Shown: positions 2,429-64,000, counted from the first letter of the stretch. The stretch is 64,000 bases of DNA from Escherichia coli (GCF_003018255.1 NZ_CP027440.1), one strand, 5' to 3'. Notes: generated from the letters alone by a model not told the origin. Numbers and translations are program-made.

Positions 2429-4501
<2,073 letters not shown>

Positions 4502-47771: not shown

Positions 47772-48692
47772 ATGTTTCCACAATGCAAATTTTCCCGCGA
47801 GTTTCTACATCCTCGCTACTGGCTCACATGGTTTGGGCTTGGTGTACTCTGGCTTTGGGTACAGCTTCCTTATCCTGTTCTCTGCTTTCTCGGCACGCGT
47901 ATTGGCGCAATGGCGCGACCATTCCTGAAACGGCGTGAATCTATCGCCCGTAAAAACCTGGAACTTTGTTTCCCACAGCATTCTGCGGAAGAACGCGAGA
48001 AGATGATTGCCGAAAACTTTCGTTCACTCGGCATGGCGCTGGTAGAAACCGGCATGGCGTGGTTCTGGCCCGACAGTCGCGTACGTAAATGGTTTGATGT
48101 TGAAGGGTTGGATAACCTTAAACGCGCACAAATGCAAAATCGCGGCGTAATGGTTGTCGGCGTCCATTTTATGTCGCTGGAACTGGGCGGCCGCGTGATG
48201 GGACTGTGCCAACCAATGATGGCTACCTATCGTCCACATAATAATCAGCTGATGGAATGGGTGCAGACCCGTGGGCGCATGCGCTCTAACAAAGCGATGA
48301 TCGGCAGAAATAATCTGCGCGGCATTGTCGGTGCACTGAAGAAAGGTGAAGCGGTATGGTTTGCTCCCGATCAGGATTATGGTCGTAAAGGCAGCTCCTT
48401 CGCGCCGTTCTTTGCGGTGGAAAATGTCGCCACAACCAATGGTACGTATGTCCTTTCACGTCTCTCTGGCGCAGCCATGTTAACCGTAACGATGGTAAGA
48501 AAAGCAGATTACAGCGGATATCGTTTGTACATCACCCCAGAGATGGAAGGCTACCCGGCAGATGAAAATCAAGCCGCTGCCTATATGAACAAGATTATCG
48601 AAAAAGAGATCATGCGCGCACCGGAGCAGTACCTCTGGATCCACCGTCGCTTTAAAACGCGCCCGGTGGGAGAATCGTCGCTATACATTTAA
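47772..48692 (+). CDS. lpxP: Lipid A palmitoleoyltransferase (cold-induced Kdo2-lipid IVA acyltransferase)
   Basis: ORF 47706-48692; start placed at MFPQCKFSREF giving 306 aa; LpxL/LpxM family. Confidence 0.9.
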   Translation: MFPQCKFSREFLHPRYWLTWFGLGVLWLWVQLPYPVLCFLGTRIGAMARPFLKRRESIARKNLELCFPQHSAEEREKMIAENFRSLGMALVETGMAWFWPDSRVRKWFDVEGLDNLKRAQMQNRGVMVVGVHFMSLELGGRVMGLCQPMMATYRPHNNQLMEWVQTRGRMRSNKAMIGRNNLRGIVGALKKGEAVWFAPDQDYGRKGSSFAPFFAVENVATTNGTYVLSRLSGAAMLTVTMVRKADYSGYRLYITPEMEGYPADENQAAAYMNKIIEKEIMRAPEQYLWIHRRFKTRPVGESSLYI

Positions 48693-49046
48693 CAAACTGC
48701 TCTTACTCTTTCCCTCCTCAAATCAGCCATAATAACCTCATGGTTTTTATGGCTTTTTTCTTAAGGTTTTTTCCTTCGCTGAATCTCTAATTATTACCGT
48801 CAGAAATTAAACTGTCGCCGATATGAGACACCTGTAAGTTACTAAAAGTAAATAAGAAAATGCCTCTTGTCTCGTTTCAGTTTTAGGCGTACATTAGCGC
48901 CGTCTGGAGCAGTTTAGCTCAGAATTCTGGGGTGATGCCCACGGTAAAATACAGGACTTTTAAGGTCGTTTTGCCCGGTGTCAACTCACTGTATCAGGTG
49001 TAATGAAGTCATTCAGGCGTAACAGTAATTACGCGGAGAGATGTAA

Positions 49047-49118
49047 AGTGAAATATTTCTTTATGGGCATTTCTTTTATGGTCATCGTTTGGGCCGGTAC
49101 TTTTGCCCTGATGATCTA
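49047..49118 (+). CDS. ypdK: Small membrane protein YpdK (23 aa)
   Basis: GTG-initiated 24-codon frame encoding (M)KYFFMGISFMVIVWAGTFALMI; too short for the ORF track; matches recalled small protein between lpxP and alaC. Confidence 0.5.
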
Positions 49119-49183
49119 AAAGCAAACTGTGCAATGAAAAACAGGAGCCATCTGGCTCCTGTTTGCATTTCTGGCGATGGTGT

Positions 49184-50422
49184 TTATTCCGCGTTTTCGT
49201 GAATATGTTTGCTGCTGGCGGGTAGTAAACCGTCGGCACGGAACATCGCTTTAATTCCACGAATCGCCTGACGAATACGGTCGCGGTTTTCAATCAGTGC
49301 AAAGCGAACATGCGTGTCGCCGTAGTCGCCAAAGCCAATCCCCGGCGAGACACAGACCTTCGCTTCGTTCAGCAGCTTCTTGGCAAATTCCAGCGAGCCC
49401 ATGGCAGCATACGGTTCCGGGATTTTCGCCCAGACATACATCGAAGCCTTCGGCATTTCGACCATCCAGCCCGCTTCATGCAGCCCTTTTACCAGTACAT
49501 CACGGCGGCGTTTGTACTGTTCAGCAATGTCGCGCACGCACTGTTGATCGCCCTCCAGCGCCGCAATCGCTGCCACCTGCAACGGCGTAAAGGTGCCGTA
49601 ATCGTGATAGCTTTTAATACGTGCCAGCGCGCTGACCAGCGTTTTGTTGCCAACCATAAAGCCGATACGCCAGCCCGCCATGTTGTAGCTTTTCGACAGC
49701 GTAAAGAACTCGACCGCCACATCGCGTGCACCTGGCACCTGCATGATTGACGGCGCTTTCCAGCCATCGTAGACGATATCGGCATAGGCCAGGTCATGGA
49801 CCACCAGCACATCGTAGCGTTTCGCCAGCGCCACAACCTTTTCGAAGAACTCCAGCTCCACGCATTGCGCGGTTGGATTCGACGGGAAGCCGAGGATCAT
49901 CATCTTCGGTTTCGGATAACTTTCGCGAATGGCGCGTTCCAGTTCGTTGAAGAAATCGACACCTTCCACCAGCGGCACTGAGCGTACCTGCGCCCCGGCA
50001 ATCACCGCGCCGTAAATATGAATCGGGTAGCTTGGATTAGGCACCAGTACAGTGTCACCATGATCCAGCGTCGCCAGCATCAGATGCGCCAGTCCCTCTT
50101 TCGAACCAATAGTGACGATGGCTTCTGATTCCGGGTCGATCTCAATGCCGTAGCGATCCTGATACCAGCGGGAAATGGCGCGACGTAACCGCGGAATGCC
50201 GCGTGACGTGGAGTAACCATGCGTGTCCGGGCGCTGGGCCACCGTACATAATTTTTCGACGATATGCGGCGGAGTCGCACCGTCCGGGTTACCCATACTG
50301 AAATCAATAATATCTTCGCCGCGCCGACGCGCAGCCATTTTCAGTTCAGCGGTAATGTTAAAAACATAGGGCGGGAGACGATCAATGCGCGTAAAGCGAC
50401 GTTCAGGGCGAGTGTCAGCCAT
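49184..50422 (-). CDS. alaC: Glutamate-pyruvate aminotransferase AlaC (YfdZ)
   Basis: 412 aa ORF, class I aminotransferase with PLP-lysine region. Confidence 0.93.
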
Positions 50423-50798
50423 AATTTCCTCAGATTAACGTTAGCGCCCGGACCGTCCGAGCGACGCTGCCACGATGGTGGCTGTTTTGAAAATAGCCTG
50501 ATTAATTTCTGTCTGTCCAGCGTTTTAGAACATTTTTATTAATGACGTTAAATGAGGAACTCTGCTTTAAAAACAGGAAATTTATCTGCGCTAACAAGAA
50601 AATTACCACCCATTTTATTAACATAATAATTTCAATAAATTTACTAACCAGAAGTGCATTATCAAGAGATGCATTGCTAATACACCATTTATCTATCAAT
50701 CCCCTTTTAAAATTGTGGTTTTTCCTCAAAAACGGCCTGCTGGTCATCAGCCTTCAGGTTACCTATCATAGAGGTTTAATCCTTATTCAGAGTCACCC

Positions 50799-52496
50799 GT
50801 GCACGAAATATTCAACATGCTGCTGGCGGTCTTCGATCGGGCAGCGTTAATGCTTATCTGCCTGTTCTTTCTCATCCGTATCCGTCTGTTTCGCGAACTG
50901 TTGCACAAGTCGGCGCACTCCCCAAAAGAGTTGCTCGCCGTTACCGCCATTTTCTCGCTGTTCGCCCTGTTCAGCACCTGGTCCGGCGTTCCTGTAGAAG
51001 GTTCGCTGGTGAACGTACGTATTATCGCGGTGATGTCAGGCGGGATTCTGTTTGGCCCGTGGGTGGGCATCATTACCGGCGTGATTGCGGGTATTCACCG
51101 TTATTTAATTGATATCGGTGGCGTGACGGCGATCCCCTGCTTTATCACCAGCATTCTGGCGGGTTGTATATCGGGCTGGATCAACCTGAAAATCCCCAAA
51201 GCACAGCGCTGGCGCGTCGGTATTCTCGGCGGCATGTTGTGTGAAACGTTGACCATGATTCTGGTGATTGTCTGGGCACCAACTACCGCATTGGGGATCG
51301 ATATCGTCTCTAAAATCGGGATTCCAATGATCCTCGGCAGCGTCTGTATCGGCTTTATTGTGTTGCTGGTACAAAGTGTTGAGGGCGAAAAAGAGGCCAG
51401 CGCCGCGCGGCAGGCCAAGCTGGCGCTGGATATCGCCAACAAAACGCTGCCGCTGTTTCGCCATGTCAATAGCGAGTCATTACGCAAGGTCTGCGAAATT
51501 ATCCGCGATGACATTCACGCTGACGCGGTGGCAATCACCAATACCGATCATGTGCTGGCCTACGTTGGCGTGGGTGAACATAACTATCAGAATGGCGATG
51601 ACTTCATTAGCCCGACTACCCGCCAGGCGATGAATTATGGAAAAATCATCATTAAAAACAATGATGAAGCCCACCGCACACCAGAGATTCATTCCATGCT
51701 GGTGATCCCATTGTGGGAGAAAGGCGTTGTGACCGGAACGCTGAAAATTTACTACTGCCACGCGCATCAGATAACCTCGTCATTACAGGAAATGGCGGTC
51801 GGTCTGTCACAAATCATCTCCACGCAACTGGAAGTTTCGCGCGCTGAGCAGCTGCGTGAAATGGCAAATAAGGCAGAGCTTCGCGCCCTGCAAAGCAAAA
51901 TTAATCCCCATTTCCTGTTTAACGCTTTGAACGCTATTTCATCGTCAATCCGTCTGAATCCGGATACCGCTCGCCAGCTGATCTTTAATCTGTCGCGTTA
52001 TCTGCGCTATAACATTGAATTAAAAGACGATGAGCAAATCGATATCAAAAAAGAGCTGTATCAAATTAAAGACTATATTGCCATTGAGCAGGCCCGCTTT
52101 GGCGACAAGCTGACGGTTATCTATGATATTGATGAAGAGGTGAATTGCTGCATTCCCAGCCTGCTGATCCAGCCGTTGGTGGAAAACGCCATTGTCCACG
52201 GTATCCAGCCTTGCAAAGGTAAAGGCGTTGTCACCATCAGCGTTGCAGAGTGCGGTAATCGGGTACGCATTGCGGTGCGGGATACCGGGCACGGCATCGA
52301 TCCAAAGGTGATTGAGCGGGTCGAAGCGAACGAAATGCCGGGCAATAAAATTGGCCTGCTGAATGTCCATCATCGCGTGAAGTTATTGTATGGCGAGGGG
52401 CTGCATATCCGCCGCCTGGAACCAGGAACGGAAATTGCGTTTTACATTCCTAACCAACGCACCCCTGTCGCCTCACAGGCTACGTTATTGCTTTGA
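50799..52496 (+). CDS. ypdA: LytS-type sensor histidine kinase YpdA (pyruvate-responsive)
   Basis: 565 aa ORF with 5TM-LYT N-terminus, GAF and His-kinase domains. Confidence 0.93.
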
Positions 52497-52510
52497 GCCG
52501 GAGTGATATT

Positions 52511-53245
52511 GTGAAAGTCATCATTGTTGAAGACGAATTCCTGGCACAACAGGAACTGAGCTGGCTAATTAAAGAGCACAGCCAGATGGAGATTGTCGGC
52601 ACCTTTGACGACGGTCTGGACGTGTTGAAGTTTTTGCAGCATAACCGCGTCGACGCCATTTTTCTGGATATCAATATTCCGTCGCTGGATGGTGTGTTAC
52701 TGGCACAAAACATCAGCCAGTTCGCCCATAAACCGTTTATTGTGTTTATCACCGCGTGGAAAGAACATGCGGTAGAAGCGTTTGAACTGGAGGCGTTTGA
52801 CTACATTCTCAAACCGTATCAGGAGTCACGCATTACCGGGATGCTGCAAAAACTGGAAGCAGCCTGGCAGCAACAGCAGACCAGCAGTACGCCTGCCGCG
52901 ACGGTAACGCGTGAGAATGACACCATTAATCTGGTGAAAGATGAGCGAATCATCGTCACGCCAATTAACGATATCTATTACGCCGAAGCGCACGAGAAAA
53001 TGACCTTTGTCTATACGCGGCGTGAATCCTACGTAATGCCGATGAACATTACCGAATTTTGCAGCAAACTGCCGCCATCGCATTTTTTCCGCTGCCATCG
53101 CTCATTTTGTGTCAATCTGAACAAAATCCGCGAGATCGAACCGTGGTTTAATAACACCTATATTCTGCGGCTGAAAGATCTGGATTTTGAAGTGCCGGTC
53201 AGCCGCAGCAAAGTTAAAGAATTCCGCCAGTTAATGCATCTTTAA
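52511..53245 (+). CDS. ypdB: LytTR-family response regulator YpdB
   Basis: ORF 52493-53245; start placed at GTG 52511 giving 244 aa (M)KVIIVEDEFLAQ... Confidence 0.92.
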   Translation: MKVIIVEDEFLAQQELSWLIKEHSQMEIVGTFDDGLDVLKFLQHNRVDAIFLDINIPSLDGVLLAQNISQFAHKPFIVFITAWKEHAVEAFELEAFDYILKPYQESRITGMLQKLEAAWQQQQTSSTPAATVTRENDTINLVKDERIIVTPINDIYYAEAHEKMTFVYTRRESYVMPMNITEFCSKLPPSHFFRCHRSFCVNLNKIREIEPWFNNTYILRLKDLDFEVPVSRSKVKEFRQLMHL

Positions 53246-53257
53246 TCGGGAACTTTC

Positions 53258-54115
53258 ATGAAAGCACCAGGCTTGCCCGCCGATCAACAATTTTTCGCCG
53301 ATCTGTTCAGCGGCCTGGTGCTTAACCCGCAACTACTGGGGCGCGTCTGGTTTGCCAGCCAGCCTGCCTCGTTACCGGTGGGCAGTTTATGTATTGATTT
53401 TCCCCGTCTGGATATCGTGCTGCGCGGCGAATACGGCAATCTGCTGGAAGCAAAGCAGCAACGTATGGTTGAAGGAGAAATGCTGTTTATTCCGGCGCGC
53501 GCGGCTAATTTACCGATCAACAACAAACCGGTGATGCTGTTAAGCCTGGTGTTCGCACCGACCTGGCTTGGGTTATCGTTTTACGATAGCCGCACCACGT
53601 CGTTGTTGCATCCGGTTCGCCAGATCCAACTTCCCAGCCTGCAACGCGGCGAAGGTGAAGCAATGCTTACTGCCCTCACCCATCTTAGCCGTTCGCCGCT
53701 GGAGCAGAATATCATTCAGCCGCTGGTGTTAAGTTTGCTGCATCTTTGCCGTAACGTGGTGAATATGCCGCCGGGCAATTCGCAGCCGCGCGGCGATTTT
53801 CTCTATCACAGCATTTGTAACTGGGTTCAGGATAATTATGCCCAGCCGCTCACCCGTGAGAGCGTGGCGCAGTTTTTTAATATCACGCCAAATCATCTGT
53901 CAAAACTGTTTGCTCAGCATGGAACAATGCGTTTTATCGAGTATGTTCGCTGGGTACGAATGGCAAAAGCGAGGATGATTTTGCAAAAATATCATCTGTC
54001 GATTCATGAAGTGGCGCAGCGTTGCGGGTTTCCGGATAGCGACTATTTTTGTCGCGTTTTCCGGCGTCAGTTTGGTCTGACGCCGGGAGAGTACAGCGCC
54101 CGTTTTCAGGGCTAA
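53258..54115 (+). CDS. ypdC: AraC-family transcriptional regulator YpdC
   Basis: 285 aa ORF with C-terminal AraC-type HTH. Confidence 0.9.
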   Translation: MKAPGLPADQQFFADLFSGLVLNPQLLGRVWFASQPASLPVGSLCIDFPRLDIVLRGEYGNLLEAKQQRMVEGEMLFIPARAANLPINNKPVMLLSLVFAPTWLGLSFYDSRTTSLLHPVRQIQLPSLQRGEGEAMLTALTHLSRSPLEQNIIQPLVLSLLHLCRNVVNMPPGNSQPRGDFLYHSICNWVQDNYAQPLTRESVAQFFNITPNHLSKLFAQHGTMRFIEYVRWVRMAKARMILQKYHLSIHEVAQRCGFPDSDYFCRVFRRQFGLTPGEYSARFQG

Positions 54116-54117
54116 CG

Positions 54118-56613
54118 TCAGAAGGTTAATTCTGTTTCCAGCAGCGTCAGGATGCTTTGTGCATCTTGCGCGGCAAACAACGACTGGCGGAAGTTTTTAT
54201 TCACCAGTTTACGCGCCAGCTGCGAGAAGACTTTCACATGATTCATCCCTTCGTTAGCGCCCAGTGTCAGCATGATCACCAGTTCGACTTCGCCCATTTC
54301 TGACTGCCAGTCAACCGGTTTCACCAGTCGGGCAATGCTGATACTGGAATGACGGATCCACTGAGATTTGGTGTGCGGGATCGCTACGCCAAAACCAACG
54401 CCGGTGGTAACAATCTCTTCCCGCTGCCAGACATCCTCTTCCAGCTCGAACGGATGTTCAGTGCGCCCGTTAACGCCGAGGTTACCGCACAGGAACTGGA
54501 TCGCCTGCTCTTTATTGCTAAAAGCCTGATCAACAAAGATATTCTCCAGCGCCAGCAGAGGGCGAACGTCTTCTTCCGGCGTAAACGCGGTGAGTAACGC
54601 TTCAATCTCCTGCGCGCTGCGGCATTCACATGCCTGACGCGCCAGTTCCCGACACGCCTCGCTATCCAGTTGACGAAGCTGGCTTTTCACCGCCGGAATG
54701 CGCGGGCTACTCATACTCAGCTCGTCCAGGCCCAGCCCAAGCAGTAGCGGCAGATAACGGCTTTCACCGCCCAGTTCACCGCAAATACCTACCCATTTAC
54801 CCCGCTGATGCGCAGTGGTAACAATCTGCTGCAACATGCGCAGGAACGATGGCGTAATCGGGTTATACAGCGGCGATACGCGCGGGTTATTACGATCGAC
54901 CGCATACAGATACTGGGTCATATCGTTGGAGCCGATACTGAAGAAATCGACCTCATCGCAGAAGTGATCGATGATGTAGCACACCGACGGCACTTCCACC
55001 ATGATACCCAGCGTAATCGTCTCTGCATGACGCAGGCCATCGCGCTTAAGCTCAACGATCGCTTTTTGGATCTCGCCCTTCACCCATAAGATCTGATCGA
55101 GGCTGTGAACCATTGGGATCATCAACTGGGCGTTGCCGAAACTGGCGGCGCGCAAAATGGCCCGCAGTTGAGTGCGGAACAGGCCAGCAAATTCCGGGTA
55201 AATTCGTACCGCACGATAGCCGAGGAACGGGTTCTCTTCCTGGGGAATGTTGAGGTAAGGAATGCTTTTATCGCCGCCGATGTCCATTGTGCGGAAGATA
55301 ATCGGCTTGTCGCCCGCGGCCAGTAGCACCTGCTGGTAGGCTTCAAATTGCTCCTGCTCGTCCGGCGCACTGTCGCGATCCATATAGAGCATTTCGGTAC
55401 GAAACAGCCCGACGCCTTCCGCGCCGTTGGCAAACGCGCCAGGCGCTTCCAGCGCGGTGCCAATATTCGCCGCGATATCAATGCGCTTGTTATCACGGGA
55501 ATAGGCCAGCTGCGCGGCGGCCTGCGCCTGCTGCTGCTGACGTTTATCCGCCAGCATCTGCGCAACCTGATAATAACCGCTCACCGCGTCATTCGGGTTA
55601 ATCGCCAACACGCCGCACTGGGCGTCAAGCACCGCCGGTTGCCCGGCATAGCGCGCAATGGCATCCAGCGGCAGGCCGCTCAGTACCGGGATCGCCGAGG
55701 CGCGGGCCAGAATCAGGGTATGCGAGGTGCGCCCGGTTTTCTCCAGAATCATGCCCGCAAGATTTTTTAAATTGAGGCTCAAAAACTGGCTAGGGGTTAA
55801 ATCCTCTGCCACCAGAATGGTCGGTTTTTCCAGCACCAGATTGTTGCGCGGTTTTAGTTCCGGCCAGGTGATATGCAGTAACTGTTCGCTGATATCGCGA
55901 ATGTCGCTAACCCGCTCGCGCAGATAATCACTGGCAGAAGCAGAAAGTTTGGCGCAAACCTGCTCCATATTGCTGATGATCGCCGCCCCCAGCCCCTGAT
56001 GCTGTTCTGCCATCAGGTGACGGATATTGCCTGCAAATTCATCATCCTGAATCAGCGACAAATGGGCGCTGAGGATAGTTTTGCTTTCGCCGTCACGCTC
56101 ACGCAATTGCTGGTTCAGTTGCTCGGCAAGCGTTGCCAGGCTGTGCTCCAGCCGGGTGGAATCTTGCGCACTGGCGGGGATCGCCCGGTAACTGTCGAGG
56201 CTGTCGCTCTGTAACAGGGTCAGCGTACCCACGCCGACGCCGCTTGCCAGCACATTGCCGTACAGTAAATCAGGATTCAGACGGCTTAATGAACGCGGCA
56301 GCGGATGCGCCGTCAGTTCTGCCTGCGTTGGCTGGACGCTGTCGCTGTCGATAAAGCGCACCTGGATGTACTCTTCCAGCACGCGCCGCGCCTGCTCTTC
56401 ATCGCTGCCGCTAATGTTCAGGCTGCAACCGTCATTAAATAGGGTGCCGGTGCCAATCAGCGCCAGCGAGCTTTTGGCATCTGCCTTTGCGTTCTGGCGA
56501 TGGTTAATAAAAGTGATTTCGCTTTGCCACTGGCTGCACTGTTCTTTAAGTTCCCACGCCGGACGAGCATGCAGACCGTTTGGCAAAGGACAGAGAAATT
56601 GAATCGTTAACAT
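54118..56613 (-). CDS. fryA: PTS multiphosphoryl transfer protein FryA (EIIA-HPr-EI fusion)
   Basis: 831 aa ORF, recognised domains. Confidence 0.93.
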   Translation of the reverse strand: MLTIQFLCPLPNGLHARPAWELKEQCSQWQSEITFINHRQNAKADAKSSLALIGTGTLFNDGCSLNISGSDEEQARRVLEEYIQVRFIDSDSVQPTQAELTAHPLPRSLSRLNPDLLYGNVLASGVGVGTLTLLQSDSLDSYRAIPASAQDSTRLEHSLATLAEQLNQQLRERDGESKTILSAHLSLIQDDEFAGNIRHLMAEQHQGLGAAIISNMEQVCAKLSASASDYLRERVSDIRDISEQLLHITWPELKPRNNLVLEKPTILVAEDLTPSQFLSLNLKNLAGMILEKTGRTSHTLILARASAIPVLSGLPLDAIARYAGQPAVLDAQCGVLAINPNDAVSGYYQVAQMLADKRQQQQAQAAAQLAYSRDNKRIDIAANIGTALEAPGAFANGAEGVGLFRTEMLYMDRDSAPDEQEQFEAYQQVLLAAGDKPIIFRTMDIGGDKSIPYLNIPQEENPFLGYRAVRIYPEFAGLFRTQLRAILRAASFGNAQLMIPMVHSLDQILWVKGEIQKAIVELKRDGLRHAETITLGIMVEVPSVCYIIDHFCDEVDFFSIGSNDMTQYLYAVDRNNPRVSPLYNPITPSFLRMLQQIVTTAHQRGKWVGICGELGGESRYLPLLLGLGLDELSMSSPRIPAVKSQLRQLDSEACRELARQACECRSAQEIEALLTAFTPEEDVRPLLALENIFVDQAFSNKEQAIQFLCGNLGVNGRTEHPFELEEDVWQREEIVTTGVGFGVAIPHTKSQWIRHSSISIARLVKPVDWQSEMGEVELVIMLTLGANEGMNHVKVFSQLARKLVNKNFRQSLFAAQDAQSILTLLETELTF

Positions 56614-56637
56614 AACCGCTCCGGGTTAATCAGGAGA

Positions 56638-57675
56638 TCATCTGAAATCCGTCAGTTGAACAACCGTCTCACGCGTAAGACGTTGAATAAGGGCAGATAA
56701 AAGCTGCTGCATCTGCAAAATGTCACGGCAATCGGCAATCGATGCGGCGCAATGTCCGTGGCGGGTGGCAGGCCCCATCACCACTGTGGGTACGCCAGTG
56801 CCGGTTAAGTGCACCGCCCCACCGTCCGTGCCACCGTTGCTGAACATATCCGCCTGCAACGGCACGCCAATTTCTGCCGCCACGGTTTCAATCCACGCGG
56901 TAAGTTTTGGCGGCGCAATCAGCGATTTATCGCTTAACACCAGCATCGGCCCGTTACCAATCTGACGATGGTTAGCCGCGCCATAATCAAAGTTTTTCGC
57001 CCAGCAGGCGGTATCAAGCACAATGGCGACGTCCGGCGACACCGCGCGGGTGGCAGTTTGCCCGCCGCGTAATCCCACCTCTTCGCTGGAACTTGCCACC
57101 AGCCACACCTCCGCAGGCAGTTCGGCGTCGTGCAGCTCACGTAGTAACGTCACCAGCAGATAGCAACCGAGGCGATCATCAAAGGCTTTCCCCATCACCC
57201 GCTGGTGAGGGAGAACCTGAAAAGTTGTATCAAAGGTGACGCGATCGCCTGGACGAATTCCCGCCTGCATCACTTCGTCATACGAGCGCGCACCAATGTC
57301 CACGCGTATGGTGCTGACGTCATTCCCCTGCCGGTCGCCGTCAAGCAGGCCTGGAATTTTGCACTCTTCACGGGTAGTGATACGCACCGACTGAAGCTGG
57401 CGGGCAGCCATGCGTACATTGCCAACCGGCAACACATCGATCGCCCCTTCGCGGGAGATGCTGCGCACCATAAATCCCACTTCGTCCATATGCGCACAGA
57501 TCATCACCTTCGGACCTGTCGACTCATTGAGTCGGATCAGCACCGATCCCAGCCCATCAAATCGCACTTCTTTTTGCAGGCGATCCGCTTCTTCCAGCAG
57601 GATCTGCCGTACTTCCTGTTCCGAGGAGGCGATCGCATCTGCCTCGCTCAACGCTTTTAATAACGATAAATCCAT
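56638..57675 (-). CDS. ypdE: M42-family aminopeptidase YpdE
   Basis: 345 aa ORF. Confidence 0.9.
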
Positions 57676-58760
57676 TATGCCTCTCCCGTGAGCAACACTG
57701 TTTTCGGCATGGCGTAGAGCACTTCTACGCCTTGCGGGGTGACCAGCACAACATCTTCGATGCGCACGCCCCCTTGCCCTGGCAAATAAATCCCCGGCTC
57801 CACGGTCAGTAACATGCCTGGCTGTAGCGTCGTGGTGTCCCGCGGTGAAAAACGCGGATCCTCATGGACTTCAATACCGATAGCATGACCGGTGTTATGA
57901 CCGAAATAGTCGCCATAACCGGCTTCTGTAATCACCCGGCGCGCGGCGTCGTCAACCTGCTGGCAGCGTACGCCGGGGCGAATCGCGGAGATTGCTGCGA
58001 GCTGTGCCTGCAGGACAATCTGATAGACGTTAAACAGCGGGTGGGATTCGGCACTTACCCCTTCGCCATTCACCAGCAAGGTGCGCGTCATATCAGAGCA
58101 GTAGCCCTGATACAGCGCACCGAAATCGAGAGTGACAAACTCGCCCGCTGCAACAATCTTGTCGCTGGCTTTGCCGTGCGGCAGCGCCCCACGCCAGCCG
58201 CTGGCGACAATGGTATCGAAAGAGGCTTTTTCTGCGCCCTGCTGGCGCATAAACCACTCCAGTTCAGCGGCTATCTCGCGCTCGCTCATCCCCGCCTGAA
58301 TAAAGCGGCGAATATGCTCTGCACCGCGATCGGCAATCCCACAGGCGAGACGGATTTTCTCCACCTCCTCTGGCGTTTTGAGTTGCCGCAGCACATCCGG
58401 CGTGGCGCTAACCAGTTTCGCATTGAGTTCAGACTGCCAGCGGTGCGCGGTTTCCCAACTCACCTGCTGGCCTTCAAAACCGAGCGTTTGCAACTGCTCA
58501 TCGGCAAAGATTTGCCTGACGATGGTGGCAAGCGTGTGCATCGCGTCGAGCAAATGCAGCTGGTAACCTTGCGTGCGGGCTTCTACATCCGCGTAATAGC
58601 GCGAGTCCACCAGAATGTGCGCACTTTCACGGCAAATCACCACATAGCCTGATCCGGTGGAGATCCCCAGATGCGGCTGTTTGTTCTGCCGTGAGGAGAG
58701 AAGCACCGCATCCAGTTGTTGCGCCTTAAGCCAGTCGCGCAGCGAAGCGAGTAATGTCAT
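57675..58760 (-). CDS. ypdF: M24-family Xaa-Pro aminopeptidase YpdF
   Basis: 361 aa ORF; stop/start overlap with ypdE. Confidence 0.9.
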
Positions 58761-58774
58761 CAGGATTGTCCTTC

Positions 58775-60022
58775 TTACAGGCTATCGATTAACAATTTGC
58801 CTTTACGGAACATCATCAGACGCAGGAACACCACCATCAGCGCAGTTATGACTGCCCCCAGCGCGATCCCCGCCATGTAGACGCCGAGGTTAGTGACCAG
58901 CGGCCATGCCCAGATAGCGGACTCCGGGAACCATTGCACTGCGCCCAGCCAGACAGCGGCGGTTGAGCCGACAATCGCGCCGACCATATAGGACGGAATG
59001 GCGGTGATGGGGCTTTCCAGCGCAAACGGAATCGCACCCTCACTGATCCCCATAAACGCCAGGAACATGGCGGTTTTACCCTGCGGATAAAGCTGAGCAC
59101 TGAACAGACGTTTGCCGGTTAAACGGCGGTCGATAATGGTCGCCAGACCCAGACCAATCGGCGGAATAACAATAGCGATGGAACGCGCGGTAACCGGTAA
59201 TACGTGGTCAGTGGTAAAGCTGAAGGCAACGAAACCAGCTGCTTTGTTGATCGGGCCACCAAGGTCGATTGCTGTCGCCGCGGCGATCCCCATCGCGTAC
59301 ATTAGCGCACCCTTCTCACCTGCGGCAGTCAGCACGGTACGGATACCGCCGTTGATCCAGCCACCAAAGGGGGTGATGACGTAGTACATCGCCAGCATGA
59401 CAAAAATGGCGGAAAGAATCGGTAGCAAAAATGTGGTTTTGAACGCTAACAGGAAATCCGGTAACTGGATTTTCTGGTTCATCCACTTCACAAGGTAACC
59501 AGCAACGATAGAAATAATCAGGGCACCAATGAAGGTGGACGGCACCGGCGAAGAGGTCGCCCATTGCATCGTGCTGGGATCGAAGTTCAGCAGTTGCGTC
59601 GGCTGGGTAGACATCAACCCACCGATAAAACCAGCCGGGAACGCCAGTTTGCCACCGATAGAGTTCGCCACAAATGCAGCAAACATCGGAATGGCAAAAC
59701 CAAACAACACGCCGCCGAAGGACTGCGACAACCAGGCAAATTTCAGTAAGGAGAGGTCGAAACCGGAGAATTTCCCGCTATTAAGAGCATCCATGATGCC
59801 GATATCAGCAGGAATTTTAAGCCAGCTATAAGCAATCAGCTGGCTGAAAGCGAGGATCACACCGCCCATAATTAAGGTCGGCACCATGCGTGAAATCCCT
59901 GACATCACATGCTGCGGGAGTTCACCCCAGAAGCTGGTTTTAGAGGCCTGCGGATTCTTAACTGCCGCTGCCGCACCGGATGCGCCAGGCACAACGGTTG
60001 CACTGCGTTTTTTAATGGCCAT
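58775..60022 (-). CDS. fryC: PTS fructose-like EIIC component FryC
   Basis: 415 aa polytopic membrane ORF. Confidence 0.9.
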
Positions 60023-60043
60023 AACAATTATCCCTGTCGAATA

Positions 60044-60370
60044 TTACTGTTGTTCAGAGGCAATCATCTCTTCGATTTCTTTGATGATGCCCGCAGCGTT
60101 TTTAATTGCGTCCTGCAAAGTGATTTCATAAACGTCGCGTGATTCGAAACGTTCGTTATCTTCCGGGGTAACCGCCACGGAGTGGATGATGATGGTCGCT
60201 TCGGCGATATCCTGCGCGGTCAGGCGATTCTGGATGCCGTCCGCGCCCTGAGTTTCAATTTTCACTTCATAGCCTGCTTCCACCGCCGCTTCTTCCAGCG
60301 CCTGGGCTGCCATAAAGGTGTGAGTCAGACCCATCGGGCAGGCACATAAAGCAATCAGTTTCTTACTCAT
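60044..60370 (-). CDS. fryB: PTS fructose-like EIIB component FryB
   Basis: ORF 60044-60421; start placed at MSKKLIALCACPMG (EIIB active-site Cys) giving 108 aa. Confidence 0.9.
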   Translation of the reverse strand: MSKKLIALCACPMGLTHTFMAAQALEEAAVEAGYEVKIETQGADGIQNRLTAQDIAEATIIIHSVAVTPEDNERFESRDVYEITLQDAIKNAAGIIKEIEEMIASEQQ

Positions 60371-60588
60371 CGTTAATTCCTCGTTCAGTGATAGTTGACG
60401 AGTGAAATTATGAACGTGCAAAACAAATCGCCGTTACCAGACAAATAATGCATTTACTGGAGAATTAATCCCGCTGTACGGAAGTGTGACGCAGGTCGGC
60501 CTTGTGAGGGGACACAAAGGAAAATTGAATTAACTGTATGATTTAAAAGATTATCGGGAGAGTTACCTCCCGATATAACAGGAAGGAT

Positions 60589-61554
60589 TTAGAGAATGTG
60601 ACCTAAGGTCTGGCGTAAATGTGCACCGGAACCAAGAAGGCCCGGATTGTCATGGACGATGAGATACACCGGAATATCATGGACATATTCTTTAAAGCGC
60701 CCTTTATCTTCAAATGCGGCACGGAAACCAGAGGCTTTGAAGAACTCAAGGAAGCGCGGCACGATACCACCCGCAATAAACACGCCGCCAAATGTCCCGA
60801 GATTGAGCGCCAGATTGCCGCCAAAACGGCCCATAATGACGCAAAACAGCGACAACGCGCGGCGGCAATCGGTGCAGCTGTCAGCCAGCGCGCGTTCGGT
60901 AATATCTTTTGGCTTGAGATTTTCTGGCAGGCGGTTGTCGGCTTTAACAATTGCGCGATACAAATTCACCAGCCCAGGGCCAGAAAGCACGCGCTCTGCC
61001 GAAACATGACCAATTTCTGCACGCAGTATTTCGAGGATAATGCCCTCTTCTTCACTATTCGGCGCAAAATCAACGTGACCGCCTTCGCCTGGCAAGCTTA
61101 CCCAACGCTTATCGACATGGACCAGATGCGCAACCCCTAGCCCCGTTCCGGCACCGTAAACCGCAATAGGCTTACCTTCTACCGGTTCTGCGCCACCAAA
61201 CTGAATCAGATGCTCTTTTTTCAGCATCGGGATCGCCATCGATACAGCGGTAAAATCGTTGATAATTTCCAGATGGCTAAAACCGAGATTCTTTTTCATT
61301 TCGGCAATTGAGAACGCCCAGGTATGGTTGGTCATTGCCACCCAGTCACCGGTAATTGGGCAAGCGATGGCAATACAGCCGTCTTGCACCTCGATCTTAT
61401 GTTCTTCAAGATAAACGCGAATGACCGCTTCGAGGCTGGGGTAATCAAGCCCTGAATAGGTCTTAGCCTGCGAGATTTCACCACTGGCAATATCACACAG
61501 AGCAAGACGTGCGTTGGTGCCGCCCACATCACCGACTAATGCATACTTTGTCAT
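60589..61554 (-). CDS. glk: Glucokinase
   Basis: 321 aa [23 protein letters not shown]... Confidence 0.95.
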
Positions 61555-61757
61555 TCTTCAACTGCTCCGCTAAAGTCAAAATAATTCTTTCTCACACTGT
61601 AAATACCTGGGGGCATAACAACAACGCCGGAAAGGCAGGCTCCCTGTAAATATCGATCTGGGTCACACAATTACTTTATCGTTTCAGCACCAATTGCAGC
61701 GATGCCTTTTTGCAAGCTGGGCAAACTAAGTATCTGACCCCGCATAAGGAATAGAAC

Positions 61758-63014
61758 ATGCTCCATCCGCGAGCCAGAACCATGTTGTTATTATCGCTCC
61801 CCGCCGTGGCAATTGGGATTGCGTCCAGTCTTATTCTGATTGTGGTGATGAAAATCGCCTCGGTATTACAGAATTTGCTCTGGCAACGACTGCCGGGAAC
61901 TCTGGGGATAGCCCAGGATTCACCTCTCTGGATCATCGGTGTATTAACGCTAACGGGTATTGCAGTGGGGTTGGTTATCCGTTTCAGCCAGGGTCATGCC
62001 GGACCAGACCCCGCCTGTGAACCGCTGATCGGCGCACCAGTTCCGCCCTCTGCGCTACCAGGACTTATCGTAGCATTAATTCTTGGTCTTGCTGGTGGCG
62101 TCAGCCTGGGGCCAGAACATCCGATCATGACCGTCAATATCGCCCTTGCGGTTGCCATTGGCGCTCGTCTGTTACCGCGCGTCAACCGAATGGAGTGGAC
62201 TATTTTAGCCTCTGCCGGAACCATCGGCGCGCTGTTTGGCACACCTGTTGCGGCGGCGTTGATATTTTCGCAAACCTTAAATGGCAGTAGTGAAGTTCCG
62301 CTATGGGATCGTCTTTTTGCGCCGTTAATGGCGGCAGCAGCTGGTGCACTAACTACCGGATTATTTTTCCATCCTCATTTTTCACTGCCCATTGCGCATT
62401 ACGGACAGATGCAAATGACCGATATTCTCAGTGGTGCAATTGTCGCGGCGATTGCCATCGCAGCAGGGATGGTCGCCGTATGGTGCTTACCACGATTGCA
62501 CGCGATGATGCATCAAATGAAAAATCCGGTGCTCGTGCTGGGTATTGGCGGATTTATTCTCGGTATTCTGGGGGTTATGGGTGGACCAGTTTCGCTGTTT
62601 AAAGGGCTGGATGAGATGCAGCAGATGGTGGCAAATCAGGCTTTCAGCACCAGCGATTACTTTTTGCTGGCGGTGATTAAACTTGCCGCCCTGGTCGTTG
62701 CTGCCGCCAGTGGCTTTCGCGGTGGGCGAATCTTCCCGGCAGTGTTTGTCGGCGTGGCATTAGGGTTGATGCTGCATGAGCACGTCCCCGCCGTTCCAGC
62801 GGCAATAACCGTTTCCTGCGCTATTCTCGGCATCGTGCTGGTGGTAACACGCGATGGCTGGTTAAGTCTTTTTATGGCGGCAGTCGTTGTACCCAATACC
62901 ACATTGCTACCGCTGCTCTGTATCGTCATGCTTCCGGCATGGCTGTTATTAGCAGGTAAGCCGATGATGATGGTCAATCGTCCGAAGCAACAGCCCCCCC
63001 ACGATAACGTTTAG
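61758..63014 (+). CDS. yfeO: ClC-family putative ion transporter YfeO
   Basis: 418 aa hydrophobic ORF. Confidence 0.9.
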
Positions 63015-63128
63015 CAAAAAATGCTCTCCTTTATGATTTAAGAGTTATGGCGATGATACGGGGCTTTACCTCCCCGTAATATTGCGTTAACAGGCCGCTG
63101 ACGGCTTCGATCGTGAAGGAGAATAACA

Positions 63129-63455
63129 ATGTTCAGGTCACTGTTTCTGGCGGCCGCCCTGATGGCATTTACCCCGCTTGCGGCAAACGCAGGTGAAATC
63201 ACCCTACTGCCATCAATCAAATTACAAATTGGCGATCGCGATCATTACGGTAATTACTGGGACGGTGGTCACTGGCGCGACCGTGACTACTGGCATCGCA
63301 ATTATGAATGGCGTAAAAACCGCTGGTGGCGTCATGATAATGGCTACCACCGTGGCTGGGATAAGCGTAAAGCGTATGAGCGTGGCTATCGTGAAGGCTG
63401 GCGCGATCGTGACGATCATCGCGGAAAAGGCCGCGGACATGGACACCGCCATTAA
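63129..63455 (+). CDS. ypeC: Periplasmic DUF2502 protein YpeC (basic, W/R/H-rich repeats)
   Basis: 108 aa ORF with signal peptide and repetitive WR/HR-rich mature region. Confidence 0.85.
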
Positions 63456-63477
63456 ACACATTCGCCAATGGAGCACA

Positions 63478-64000
<523 letters not shown>

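Follow-up and report, generated by a model that had tools for sequence, protein, structure and literature searches.

In the frl system of Escherichia coli and Bacillus subtilis, which handles fructoselysine, and in the gfr system of Salmonella, a phosphotransferase system (PTS) for glucoselysine and fructoselysine, glycated amino acids are imported, phosphorylated and split in the cytoplasm; both use SIS-domain deglycases and kinases, not peptidases. The Cys-Gly-3M3SH pathway of Staphylococcus hominis joins peptide uptake, a dipeptidase and the C-S lyase PatB. Proteins of the M42 peptidase family are found within PTS operons of E. coli itself, namely FrvX in frvABXR and SgcX in sgcXBCQAER. Another such operon, fryB-fryC-ypdF-ypdE-fryA, encodes an M42 (YpdE) and an M24 (YpdF) peptidase among the components of a fructose-like PTS, and is analysed here in a stretch of 64,000 nucleotides (nt) from E. 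coli (NZ_CP027440.1), called the window below.

The genes, their order, lengths and junctions are alike in the window and in E. coli K-12, where fryBC-ypdFE-fryA (b2387-b2383) is accompanied by ypdC and pyrSR (ypdAB); nucleotide identity to the K-12 locus is 96-97.5% and the differences are allelic only. This is an already known E. coli core operon. The transcription units listed for it and its neighbours are 'fryBC ypdF ypdE fryA' and 'ypdA ypdB ypdC' (PMC2731931). FryABC is described as a putative PTS of unknown substrate (PMC5364489), in agreement with an earlier note on this DNA, which had called the substrate and the coupling of peptidases to a PTS poorly defined. An in-frame fryA deletion gave better fitness after prolonged culture in lysogeny broth (LB) (PMC5364489), and a ypdE deletion in uropathogenic E. 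coli gave a competitive index of 0.30 in the bladder (PMC8767336). A literature search for M42/PTS, PatB/PTS and fry function turned up nothing mechanistic.

New here are the recognition of a conserved peptidase-PTS module, its mosaic ancestry in E. coli and a predicted YpdC/CRP promoter, while the category of the locus is unchanged. We propose, as an evenly poised reading in which function is inferred from sequence, that the operon is controlled by YpdC and CRP and would import a sugar-amino acid or sugar-peptide conjugate that the two peptidases trim.

Results

The operon and its products

Five co-directional minus-strand open reading frames (ORFs) are present at 54118-60421 in the ORF list of the window, matching the interval of the earlier note, although its end overshoots the start of fryB by 51 nt: at 60421 the maximal fryB ORF begins with TTG, and the true start is the ATG at 60370, with the Shine-Dalgarno sequence GAGGAA ahead of it. 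The operon, from fryB to fryA, spans 54118-60370 (Table 1). The spacers are 21 nt between fryB and fryC, 14 nt between fryC and ypdF and 24 nt between ypdE and fryA, and the ypdF stop and the ypdE start overlap by 1 nt (TAATG), so that the description of two peptidase genes embedded by tight or overlapping junctions is borne out. Terminator-like and promoter-like matches within the cluster lay at or below shuffle expectation, and internal terminators and promoters were rejected on that ground; we infer a single transcript. No Rfam match reached the gathering threshold in 48000-64000.

FryA carries five Pfam domains in the order PTS-HPr, PEP-utilisers_N, mobile and C (the three of enzyme I, EI) and PTS_EIIA_2. 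Its HPr domain (PF00381, 52.3 bits) has an intact GLH15ARP motif; its EI domain (PF05524/PF00391/PF02896; TIGR01417 at 506 bits against a cutoff of 341.7) keeps the motifs GRTSH298TLILAR, SIGSNDMTQY and CGE; and its IIA domain (PF00359, 110 bits; TIGR00848 at 140.9 bits against 103.5) keeps AIPH747T. FryB matches PTS_IIB (PF02302, 68.6 bits) and the fructose IIB model TIGR00829 (89.4 bits, cutoff 76.85), with its active-site Cys within LCACPMG. FryC matches PTS_EIIC (PF02378) and scores 157.3 bits with the fructose IIC model TIGR01427, slightly under the cutoff of 157.55, and every equivalog model scores it far under cutoff; it would be called fructose-like, and not demonstrably fructose-specific. 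Judged by the intact EI, HPr, IIA and IIB motifs, FryA, FryB and FryC would make up a complete and autonomous PTS phosphorelay, and the Pfam and NCBIfam domains uphold the earlier view of a complete fructose-like PTS.

YpdE is a Peptidase_M42 protein (PF05343, 286.6 bits; equivalog NF007421, 678 bits) with the metal and catalytic residues H62, D64, D166, E198, E199, D221 and H308 present and invariant in A1 and A2; the structure of its Shigella orthologue is 1YLO. YpdF combines Creatinase_N (PF01321) and Peptidase_M24 (PF00557; equivalog NF007310, 809 bits), its D/D/H/E/E ligand motifs are readable in the sequence, and its structure has been solved (5CNX, 'Aminopeptidase YpdF'). All three M42 paralogues of E. 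coli (YpdE, FrvX and SgcX) sit in PTS operons and keep the M42 metal ligands, with YpdE 33-37% identical to the other two; unlike fry, the frv and sgc operons lack both an M24 partner and an EI/HPr of their own, and their regulators are FrvR and SgcR.

Many E. coli and Shigella YpdE variants of 318 amino acids (aa) in the protein database (for example P0024) are without exactly residues 72-98, that is 27 residues (57382-57462 in the window), and the corresponding 81-nt segment alone was matched by megablast in 1932 genomes only. An 81-bp in-frame deletion as a common E. coli allele was nevertheless rejected, since a 381-nt query around the segment was covered to at least 80% in 5420 of 5421 genomes; the shortfall of the short segment points to a local hotspot of divergence and not to deletion. 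A 472-aa protein (P0018) of one E. coli genome unites the M24 and M42 domains; it probably arose by frameshift or read-through at the 1-nt ypdF/ypdE overlap (57675).

Related clusters in other bacteria

In a search of 1.8 billion representative proteins, the nearest relatives of YpdE outside the Enterobacterales were 42-45% identical to it, and their contigs carry the same parts of the cluster. We then scanned 100,044 species genomes with an alignment of the YpdE clade and labelled the genes of the 80 resulting loci by phmmer with the window proteins. The 11 loci whose M42 protein is at least 60% identical to YpdE, all from Enterobacterales, have M24 in every case and IIC and YpdC in 10 each (the loci missing IIC or YpdC are on contigs cut there), with neither a PatB-type lyase nor a PRD regulator in any. 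At 36-60% identity (n=24; Clostridia, Lachnospiraceae, Enterococcus, Streptococcus, Lactobacillus, Erysipelotrichales and Coriobacteriia) IIC was found in 20 loci, M24 in 18, a PatB-type lyase in 19, a PRD regulator in 20 and YpdC in none. Below 36% (n=45) the counts were 7 for IIC, 1 for M24, 6 for the PRD regulator and 0 for YpdC, and the 7 'lyase' loci there are class I/II aminotransferase-fold matches, not PatB-assigned. The same peptidase-PTS pattern is seen on metagenome contigs. Going by these neighbourhoods, the pairing of a YpdE-clade M42 protein with a PTS and an M24 protein reads as an old, conserved module of some 30 species in three phyla. Such synteny contradicts the possibility, named in the earlier note, that ypdE and ypdF are independent of the fry genes and unrelated to them.

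The clusters come in two arrangements. In type A the order is regulator, IIA(Fru), IIB, IIC, M24, M42, lyase, and in type B it is regulator, M42, IIA(Lac), IIB, IIC of the Lac/cellobiose family (TIGR00410, 257 bits), M24, lyase; FryC shows no BLAST similarity to the type B IIC. The presence of one peptidase/lyase set on two unrelated PTS families marks the peptidases as the constant catabolic core. Type A clusters such as those of Caproiciproducens faecalis and Enterocloster lavalensis (L048) have the IIB-IIC-M24-M42 order of E. coli, yet their IIA is a protein of its own, their regulator is of the PRD/Mga type and they have a C-S lyase, where E. coli has the fused FryA, a convergent YpdC and no lyase. 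The PRD/Mga-type regulator with an EIIA_2 domain is absent from all 11 enterobacterial loci; YpdC takes its position.

The 'aminotransferase' of these clusters is a C-S lyase of the PatB/MalY family (TIGR04350), with 6QP3, 8Y54 and 9K71 as best PDB matches, among PatB, cysteine-S-conjugate beta-lyases, MalY and cystalysin. We considered whether alaC, which lies beyond ypdABC on the same strand, could be a split-off member of the module, as relatives carry Aminotran_1_2; this was rejected, as the identity of AlaC to the cluster lyases does not exceed 19-23%. No glycosidase or deglycase, SIS deglycases included, recurs in the related clusters.

Recurring extras were seen among the 18 type A and B clusters examined. 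A co-directional gene for an RDD-family membrane protein (PF06271, about 200 aa) is present in 8 of the 18, all eight of type B (L034 15363, L037 15512, L038 13109, L039 10265, L040 14586, L041 14495, L043 10756 and L044 11059), and phosphomannose isomerase lies within about 6 kb in 3 of the 18, right after the lyase in C. faecalis (L023). Directly upstream of one type B cluster (L005, 144-5862) there is a second PTS (IIBCA, Fru-type) with HAD, SIS, PfkB and class II aldolase genes, a set resembling a tagatose or amino-sugar pathway. More distant M42 genes of Lachnospiraceae and Clostridium are arranged as PRD regulator, IIA(Lac), IIB, IIC, M42, M42 (L046, L056, L072, L075, L080, L086), and M42-M42 tandem fusion proteins of about 700 aa exist (P0138, P0148, P0154 and others). 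M24-M42 fusions as Rosetta-stone evidence were rejected, the matches of about 700 aa being these tandems.

Ancestry and selection

FryB is 70-76% identical to type A clostridial IIB proteins against 39-45% to FrwB/FrvB of E. coli, and FryC is 56-64% identical to type A clostridial IIC against 27-29% to FrwC/FrvB; YpdF (44-49%) and YpdE (41-49%) also have type A clostridial counterparts. FryA aligns to E. coli PtsA along 99% of its length with 45% identity, and to clostridial type A proteins in the IIA domain only, with 26-35% identity; YpdC has no counterpart in the type A clusters. By these identities the E. coli locus is a mosaic, in which fryB-fryC-ypdF-ypdE is shared with Clostridia and FryA and YpdC are enterobacterial paralogues that replaced a separate IIA and a PRD regulator. 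The guanine-plus-cytosine (GC) content of the operon is 54-58% against 46-53% in the flanks; a Firmicute-like low GC content as a signature of transfer was rejected, the operon being somewhat rich in GC.

The 6.3-kb stretch was found by megablast in 5424 of 5426 complete E. coli genomes. The ratios of nonsynonymous to synonymous substitution (dN/dS) against K-12 are 0.038 for fryA, 0.031 for ypdE, 0.135 for ypdF, 0.021 for fryC, 0.023 for fryB and 0.054 for ypdC. At 99% identity or more over 54118-60421 only 4 of the 5426 genomes match (JNE23-011, JNE112863, 200164 and E04), the others being at about 97.5% or lower; the window stems from an uncommon E. coli lineage. Synonymous divergence from K-12 across 49184-63014 is 0.10-0.18 from alaC through fryB and about 0.06 in glk and yfeO, which suggests a recombination boundary near the glk-fryB spacer, at about 60.4-60.6 kb.

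The fryB promoter and YpdC

When the 200 nt ahead of fryB in 11 Enterobacterales (E. coli through to Hafnia) were aligned, a block of about 95 nt stood out, with 50 of 100 columns kept in at least 9 of the 11 sequences against 2 of 100 in the next 100 columns upstream. The block is conserved to Hafnia, whose YpdE protein has no more than 64% identity. It holds a putative -10 hexamer, two 18-bp direct repeats (R1 and R2) and a CRP-like site. R2 ends 21 nt before the -10, and relative to a putative transcription start near 60400, about 7 nt beyond CATAAT, R2 would cover about -51 to -34 and R1 about -71 to -54, with the centre of the CRP-like site at about -92.5.

This layout can be set beside ParaBAD, where CRP binds at -93.5 and araI1 and araI2 follow, abutting the -35. 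The predicted fry promoter is like it in having two direct repeats of about 17-18 bp and a CRP-like site in a similar arrangement, and unlike it in its repeat period of 20 rather than 21 nt. In the K-12 ptsA/frwC intergenic region (L092, about 3420-3480) we also observed two TCCAG/TCCAC-centred repeats with a 20-nt period, as in fry. The frwC promoter has TATTGT at a distance matching that in fry and adjoins yijO, the closest paralogue of ypdC.

YpdC carries a double helix-turn-helix (HTH) at its C-terminus (PF12833, HTH_18, 74 bits; PF00165, HTH_AraC, 49 bits) and is 35% identical to YijO, the AraC-type protein encoded beside frw. Its AlphaFold2 model (predicted local distance difference test, pLDDT, 85) shows an N-terminal beta-barrel, a helical linker and two HTH; Foldseek matched it over its full length to Rns, CsvR and ToxT, and its DNA-binding part to the corresponding domains of AraC, MarA and GadX (root-mean-square deviation 1-2.4 A). 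The N-domain alone gave weak matches to RhaR/BgaR (E about 0.01-0.04) and no Pfam match. On the model, YpdC would be a two-domain AraC protein, possibly of the ligand type.

ypdC lies directly after fryA in all 10 enterobacterial loci with sequence there, 4 of which are without ypdAB. The cluster has other genomic surroundings in Superficieibacter, Pluralibacter, Enterobacter sp. ENT03 and Hafnia: glk, ypdAB and alaC are missing nearby, and ypdC is still convergent after fryA. ypdAB is beside the cluster only in Escherichia, Citrobacter and Pseudocitrobacter. The travelling unit is fryB to fryA plus ypdC, and ypdAB is probably a neighbour outside the module. Because the operator is conserved, ypdC travels with the cluster without ypdAB, the repeats recur at frw beside yijO and YpdC models as it does, we predict that YpdC, helped by CRP, activates the fryB promoter. 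The operon is probably switched on by YpdC rather than by the pyruvate sensor YpdAB.

Table 1. Position and description of the features discussed, counted from the first letter of the window
Feature	Position	Strand	Description
fryB	60044..60370	-	PTS enzyme IIB, 108 aa; its gene leads the operon
fryC	58775..60022	-	PTS enzyme IIC, 415 aa; membrane permease
ypdF	57675..58760	-	M24B aminopeptidase, 361 aa
ypdE	56638..57675	-	M42 aminopeptidase, 345 aa
fryA	54118..56613	-	Fused HPr-EI-IIA(Fru) multiphosphoryl transfer protein, 831 aa
Predicted fryB promoter/operator block	60371..60551	-	Conserved alignment columns
Putative -10 hexamer CATAAT	60407..60412	-	CCATAAT kept in 9/11 species; 36 nt upstream of ATG
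R2, proximal 18-bp direct repeat GCATTATTTGTCTGGTAA	60434..60451	-	Conserved across genera; predicted AraC-type (YpdC) half-site abutting -35
R1, distal 18-bp direct repeat GGATTAATTCTCCAGTAA	60454..60471	-	Repeats R2 with a 20-nt period
CRP-like site AAGGCCGACCTGCGTCACACTT	60482..60503	-	CGA-N6-TCACA core conserved in the alignment
Terminator-like hairpin	60552-60575		10-bp stem and T-rich tail directly after glk
glk	60589-61554		Gene upstream of fryB; 218-nt spacer between
ypdA	50799-52496	+	
ypdB	52511-53245	+	
ypdC	53258-54115	+	AraC/XylS-family regulator, 285 aa

Neighbouring genes

In the RefSeq genome that is 100% identical to the stretch, the genes of the operon are annotated fryB, fryC, ypdF, ypdE and ptsP (= fryA), with ypdA, ypdB, ypdC and alaC on one side and glk and yfeO on the other; the arrangement in K-12 is no different. 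YpdA and YpdB (PyrSR) form a LytS/LytTR pair (5TMR_LYT, GAF, His_kinase and HATPase_c; Response_reg and LytTR). The earlier note had placed this pair and the AraC regulator upstream of the operon; this has to be corrected, as ypdABC is convergent with the operon at its 3' end, the stop of ypdC (54113-54115) being 2 nt from that of fryA (54118-54120), and the gene upstream is glk. The hairpin in the glk-fryB spacer is likely the glk terminator, shielding the fry promoter from read-through out of glk.

Discussion

Taken together, we propose the following sequence of events. One transcript from fryB to fryA would begin some 40 nt ahead of fryB, at a promoter activated by YpdC, which would sense a ligand and occupy the two 18-bp direct repeats abutting the -35, with the assistance of the CRP site upstream. 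FryA would pass phosphate from phosphoenolpyruvate (PEP) to its own HPr, then to its own IIA and on to FryB, and FryC would take up a sugar to which an amino acid or a short peptide is still attached, phosphorylating it. YpdF (M24B, of the Xaa-Pro/Met type) and YpdE (M42, broad) would then strip the amino-acid part in the cytoplasm, and the freed parts may feed carbon and nitrogen metabolism. The idea of a conjugate was put forward because the peptidase core is constant across two PTS families, no glycosidases are found, the hosts are gut-associated and the relatives carry a lyase; the last suggests an end product linked through Cys or Ser. The phenotypes of the ypdE and fryA deletions are compatible with a peptide-rich niche. 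In gfr there is a precedent for uptake by a PTS, with the difference that no SIS deglycase recurs in the fry-type clusters. The non-enterobacterial relatives resemble the S. hominis pathway in combining peptidases with a PatB-type cysteine-S-conjugate beta-lyase, though that pathway relies on a peptide transporter, not a PTS, and the E. coli operon is without the lyase.

Several points weigh against this proposal. With 1 mismatch allowed, the repeat motif matches the window at no more than two places, and it was derived from these same sites and so is defined on the sites on which it is scored. By our own count, 13 of the 22 positions of the CRP-like site agree with the CRP consensus, the left half of the site being poor, and the putative transcription start is placed solely by the conserved -10. 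No YpdC sites were found in K-12 by chromatin immunoprecipitation with exonuclease treatment (ChIP-exo) under the conditions used (PMC8464067), which also accords with the earlier note's picture of a poorly defined logic. The enterobacterial version is without the PatB-type lyase and the PRD regulator of the other versions, so that the pathway may be truncated or different there. No peptide conjugate that exceeds a glycated amino acid in size is known as a PTS substrate. Finally, in work of Zheng and colleagues from 2005, YpdE is said to be a broad aminopeptidase and YpdF a Met/Xaa-Pro aminopeptidase, and the purified enzymes reportedly cleave ordinary peptides; they could thus be general peptidases.

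Another explanation, which we regard as unlikely, is that ordinary cytoplasmic aminopeptidases might be co-expressed with a PTS for a plain fructose-like sugar, coordinating carbon and nitrogen scavenging with no common substrate. YpdE and YpdF are indeed typical members of their families: their peptidase sites are intact, and the solved structures of close homologues are those of aminopeptidases or prolidases. In their scores FryB and FryC belong with the fructose family, and the E. coli operon has no enzyme for splitting a sugar from an amino acid. Loose co-regulation is nevertheless hard to square with the presence of the M42 and M24 pair beside two unrelated PTS families in three phyla, usually in a tight co-directional block with a PRD regulator, when generic M42 proteins (below 36% identity) have an M24 partner in just 1 of 45 loci. 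More improbable still is that in Enterobacterales the operon is silent and partly dismantled, left over from a pathway of the clostridial type that was acquired horizontally, with its lyase and regulator lost and without a current role. The far greater closeness of fryB-fryC-ypdF-ypdE to clostridial clusters than to E. coli paralogues would fit such an origin, as would the GC content differing from that of the flanks, the missing PatB-type lyase and PRD regulator in 11 of 11 enterobacterial loci and the lack of YpdC binding under laboratory conditions (PMC8464067). A decaying remnant is made unlikely, however, by the low dN/dS (0.02-0.135, strong purifying selection on five intact genes) together with near-universal presence in E. 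coli and a promoter block conserved to Hafnia; a dedicated fryA and ypdC were moreover recruited to the locus, and mutant phenotypes have been reported (PMC8767336, PMC5364489).

As for regulation, the earlier note had implied a link to YpdAB, which is pyruvate-responsive and whose known target, yhjX, is reached via a GGCATTTCAT direct repeat (PMC5552118, PMC4847170). One could imagine that YpdA/YpdB controls the operon by sensing the pyruvate that the PTS makes from PEP, with YpdB binding the direct repeats of fry. The genes are adjacent in E. coli, the 20-nt period of the fry repeats is near the 21 nt of LytTR sites, and the repeats have a loose likeness to GGCATTTCAT (7/10, own count). We hold this to be very doubtful, for the motif GGCATTTCAT-N11-GGCATTTCAT of the YpdB type (PMC4847170) is absent from the window even with up to 3 mismatches allowed, the conserved units measure 18 bp, not 10 bp, and are AraC-like, the gene sets are convergent, and the operator is kept also in species with ypdC but no ypdAB at the fry locus; the adjacency is specific to one clade and the implied link is weak. 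ypdC begins 12 nt after ypdB in one listed unit, so that its expression may depend on the ypdA promoter, and through a transcript shared in this way YpdAB could act on the operon in E. coli only indirectly.

Returning to the conjugate proposal, a wider version of it may be considered, which we offer as possible but rather doubtful: that fry/ypdEF is the rewired enterobacterial form of a widespread pathway of gut bacteria for PTS uptake of a so far undescribed class of substrate, sugars covalently joined to an amino acid or short peptide that contains Cys or Ser (glycated or S- or O-glycosylated). Import and phosphorylation of the sugar would fall to the PTS and trimming of the peptide to the M24 and M42 proteins; in most lineages the PatB-type beta-lyase would then free the sugar phosphate by beta-elimination. 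In Enterobacterales a private EI-HPr-IIA protein would drive uptake, and YpdC with CRP would switch the system on.

Conclusions

Few complete PTS of E. coli lack a known substrate, as fry does, and three, fry included, carry an M42 peptidase. The comparison across genomes names a likely regulator (YpdC with CRP) along with the exact operator bases, and it shows the peptidases, not the transporter family, to be the constant part of the module. The lyase-bearing relatives in culturable gut Firmicutes and Coriobacteriia are places in which the substrate may be found; Clostridium cavendishii DSM 21758, Enterococcus sp. HY326 and Faecalibacillus faecis are lyase-bearing relatives. Should a conjugate of a sugar with a peptide or an amino acid prove to be that substrate, the range of compounds known to be imported by PTS would widen, and the reported bladder-colonisation and LB-fitness phenotypes could find their explanation in it.

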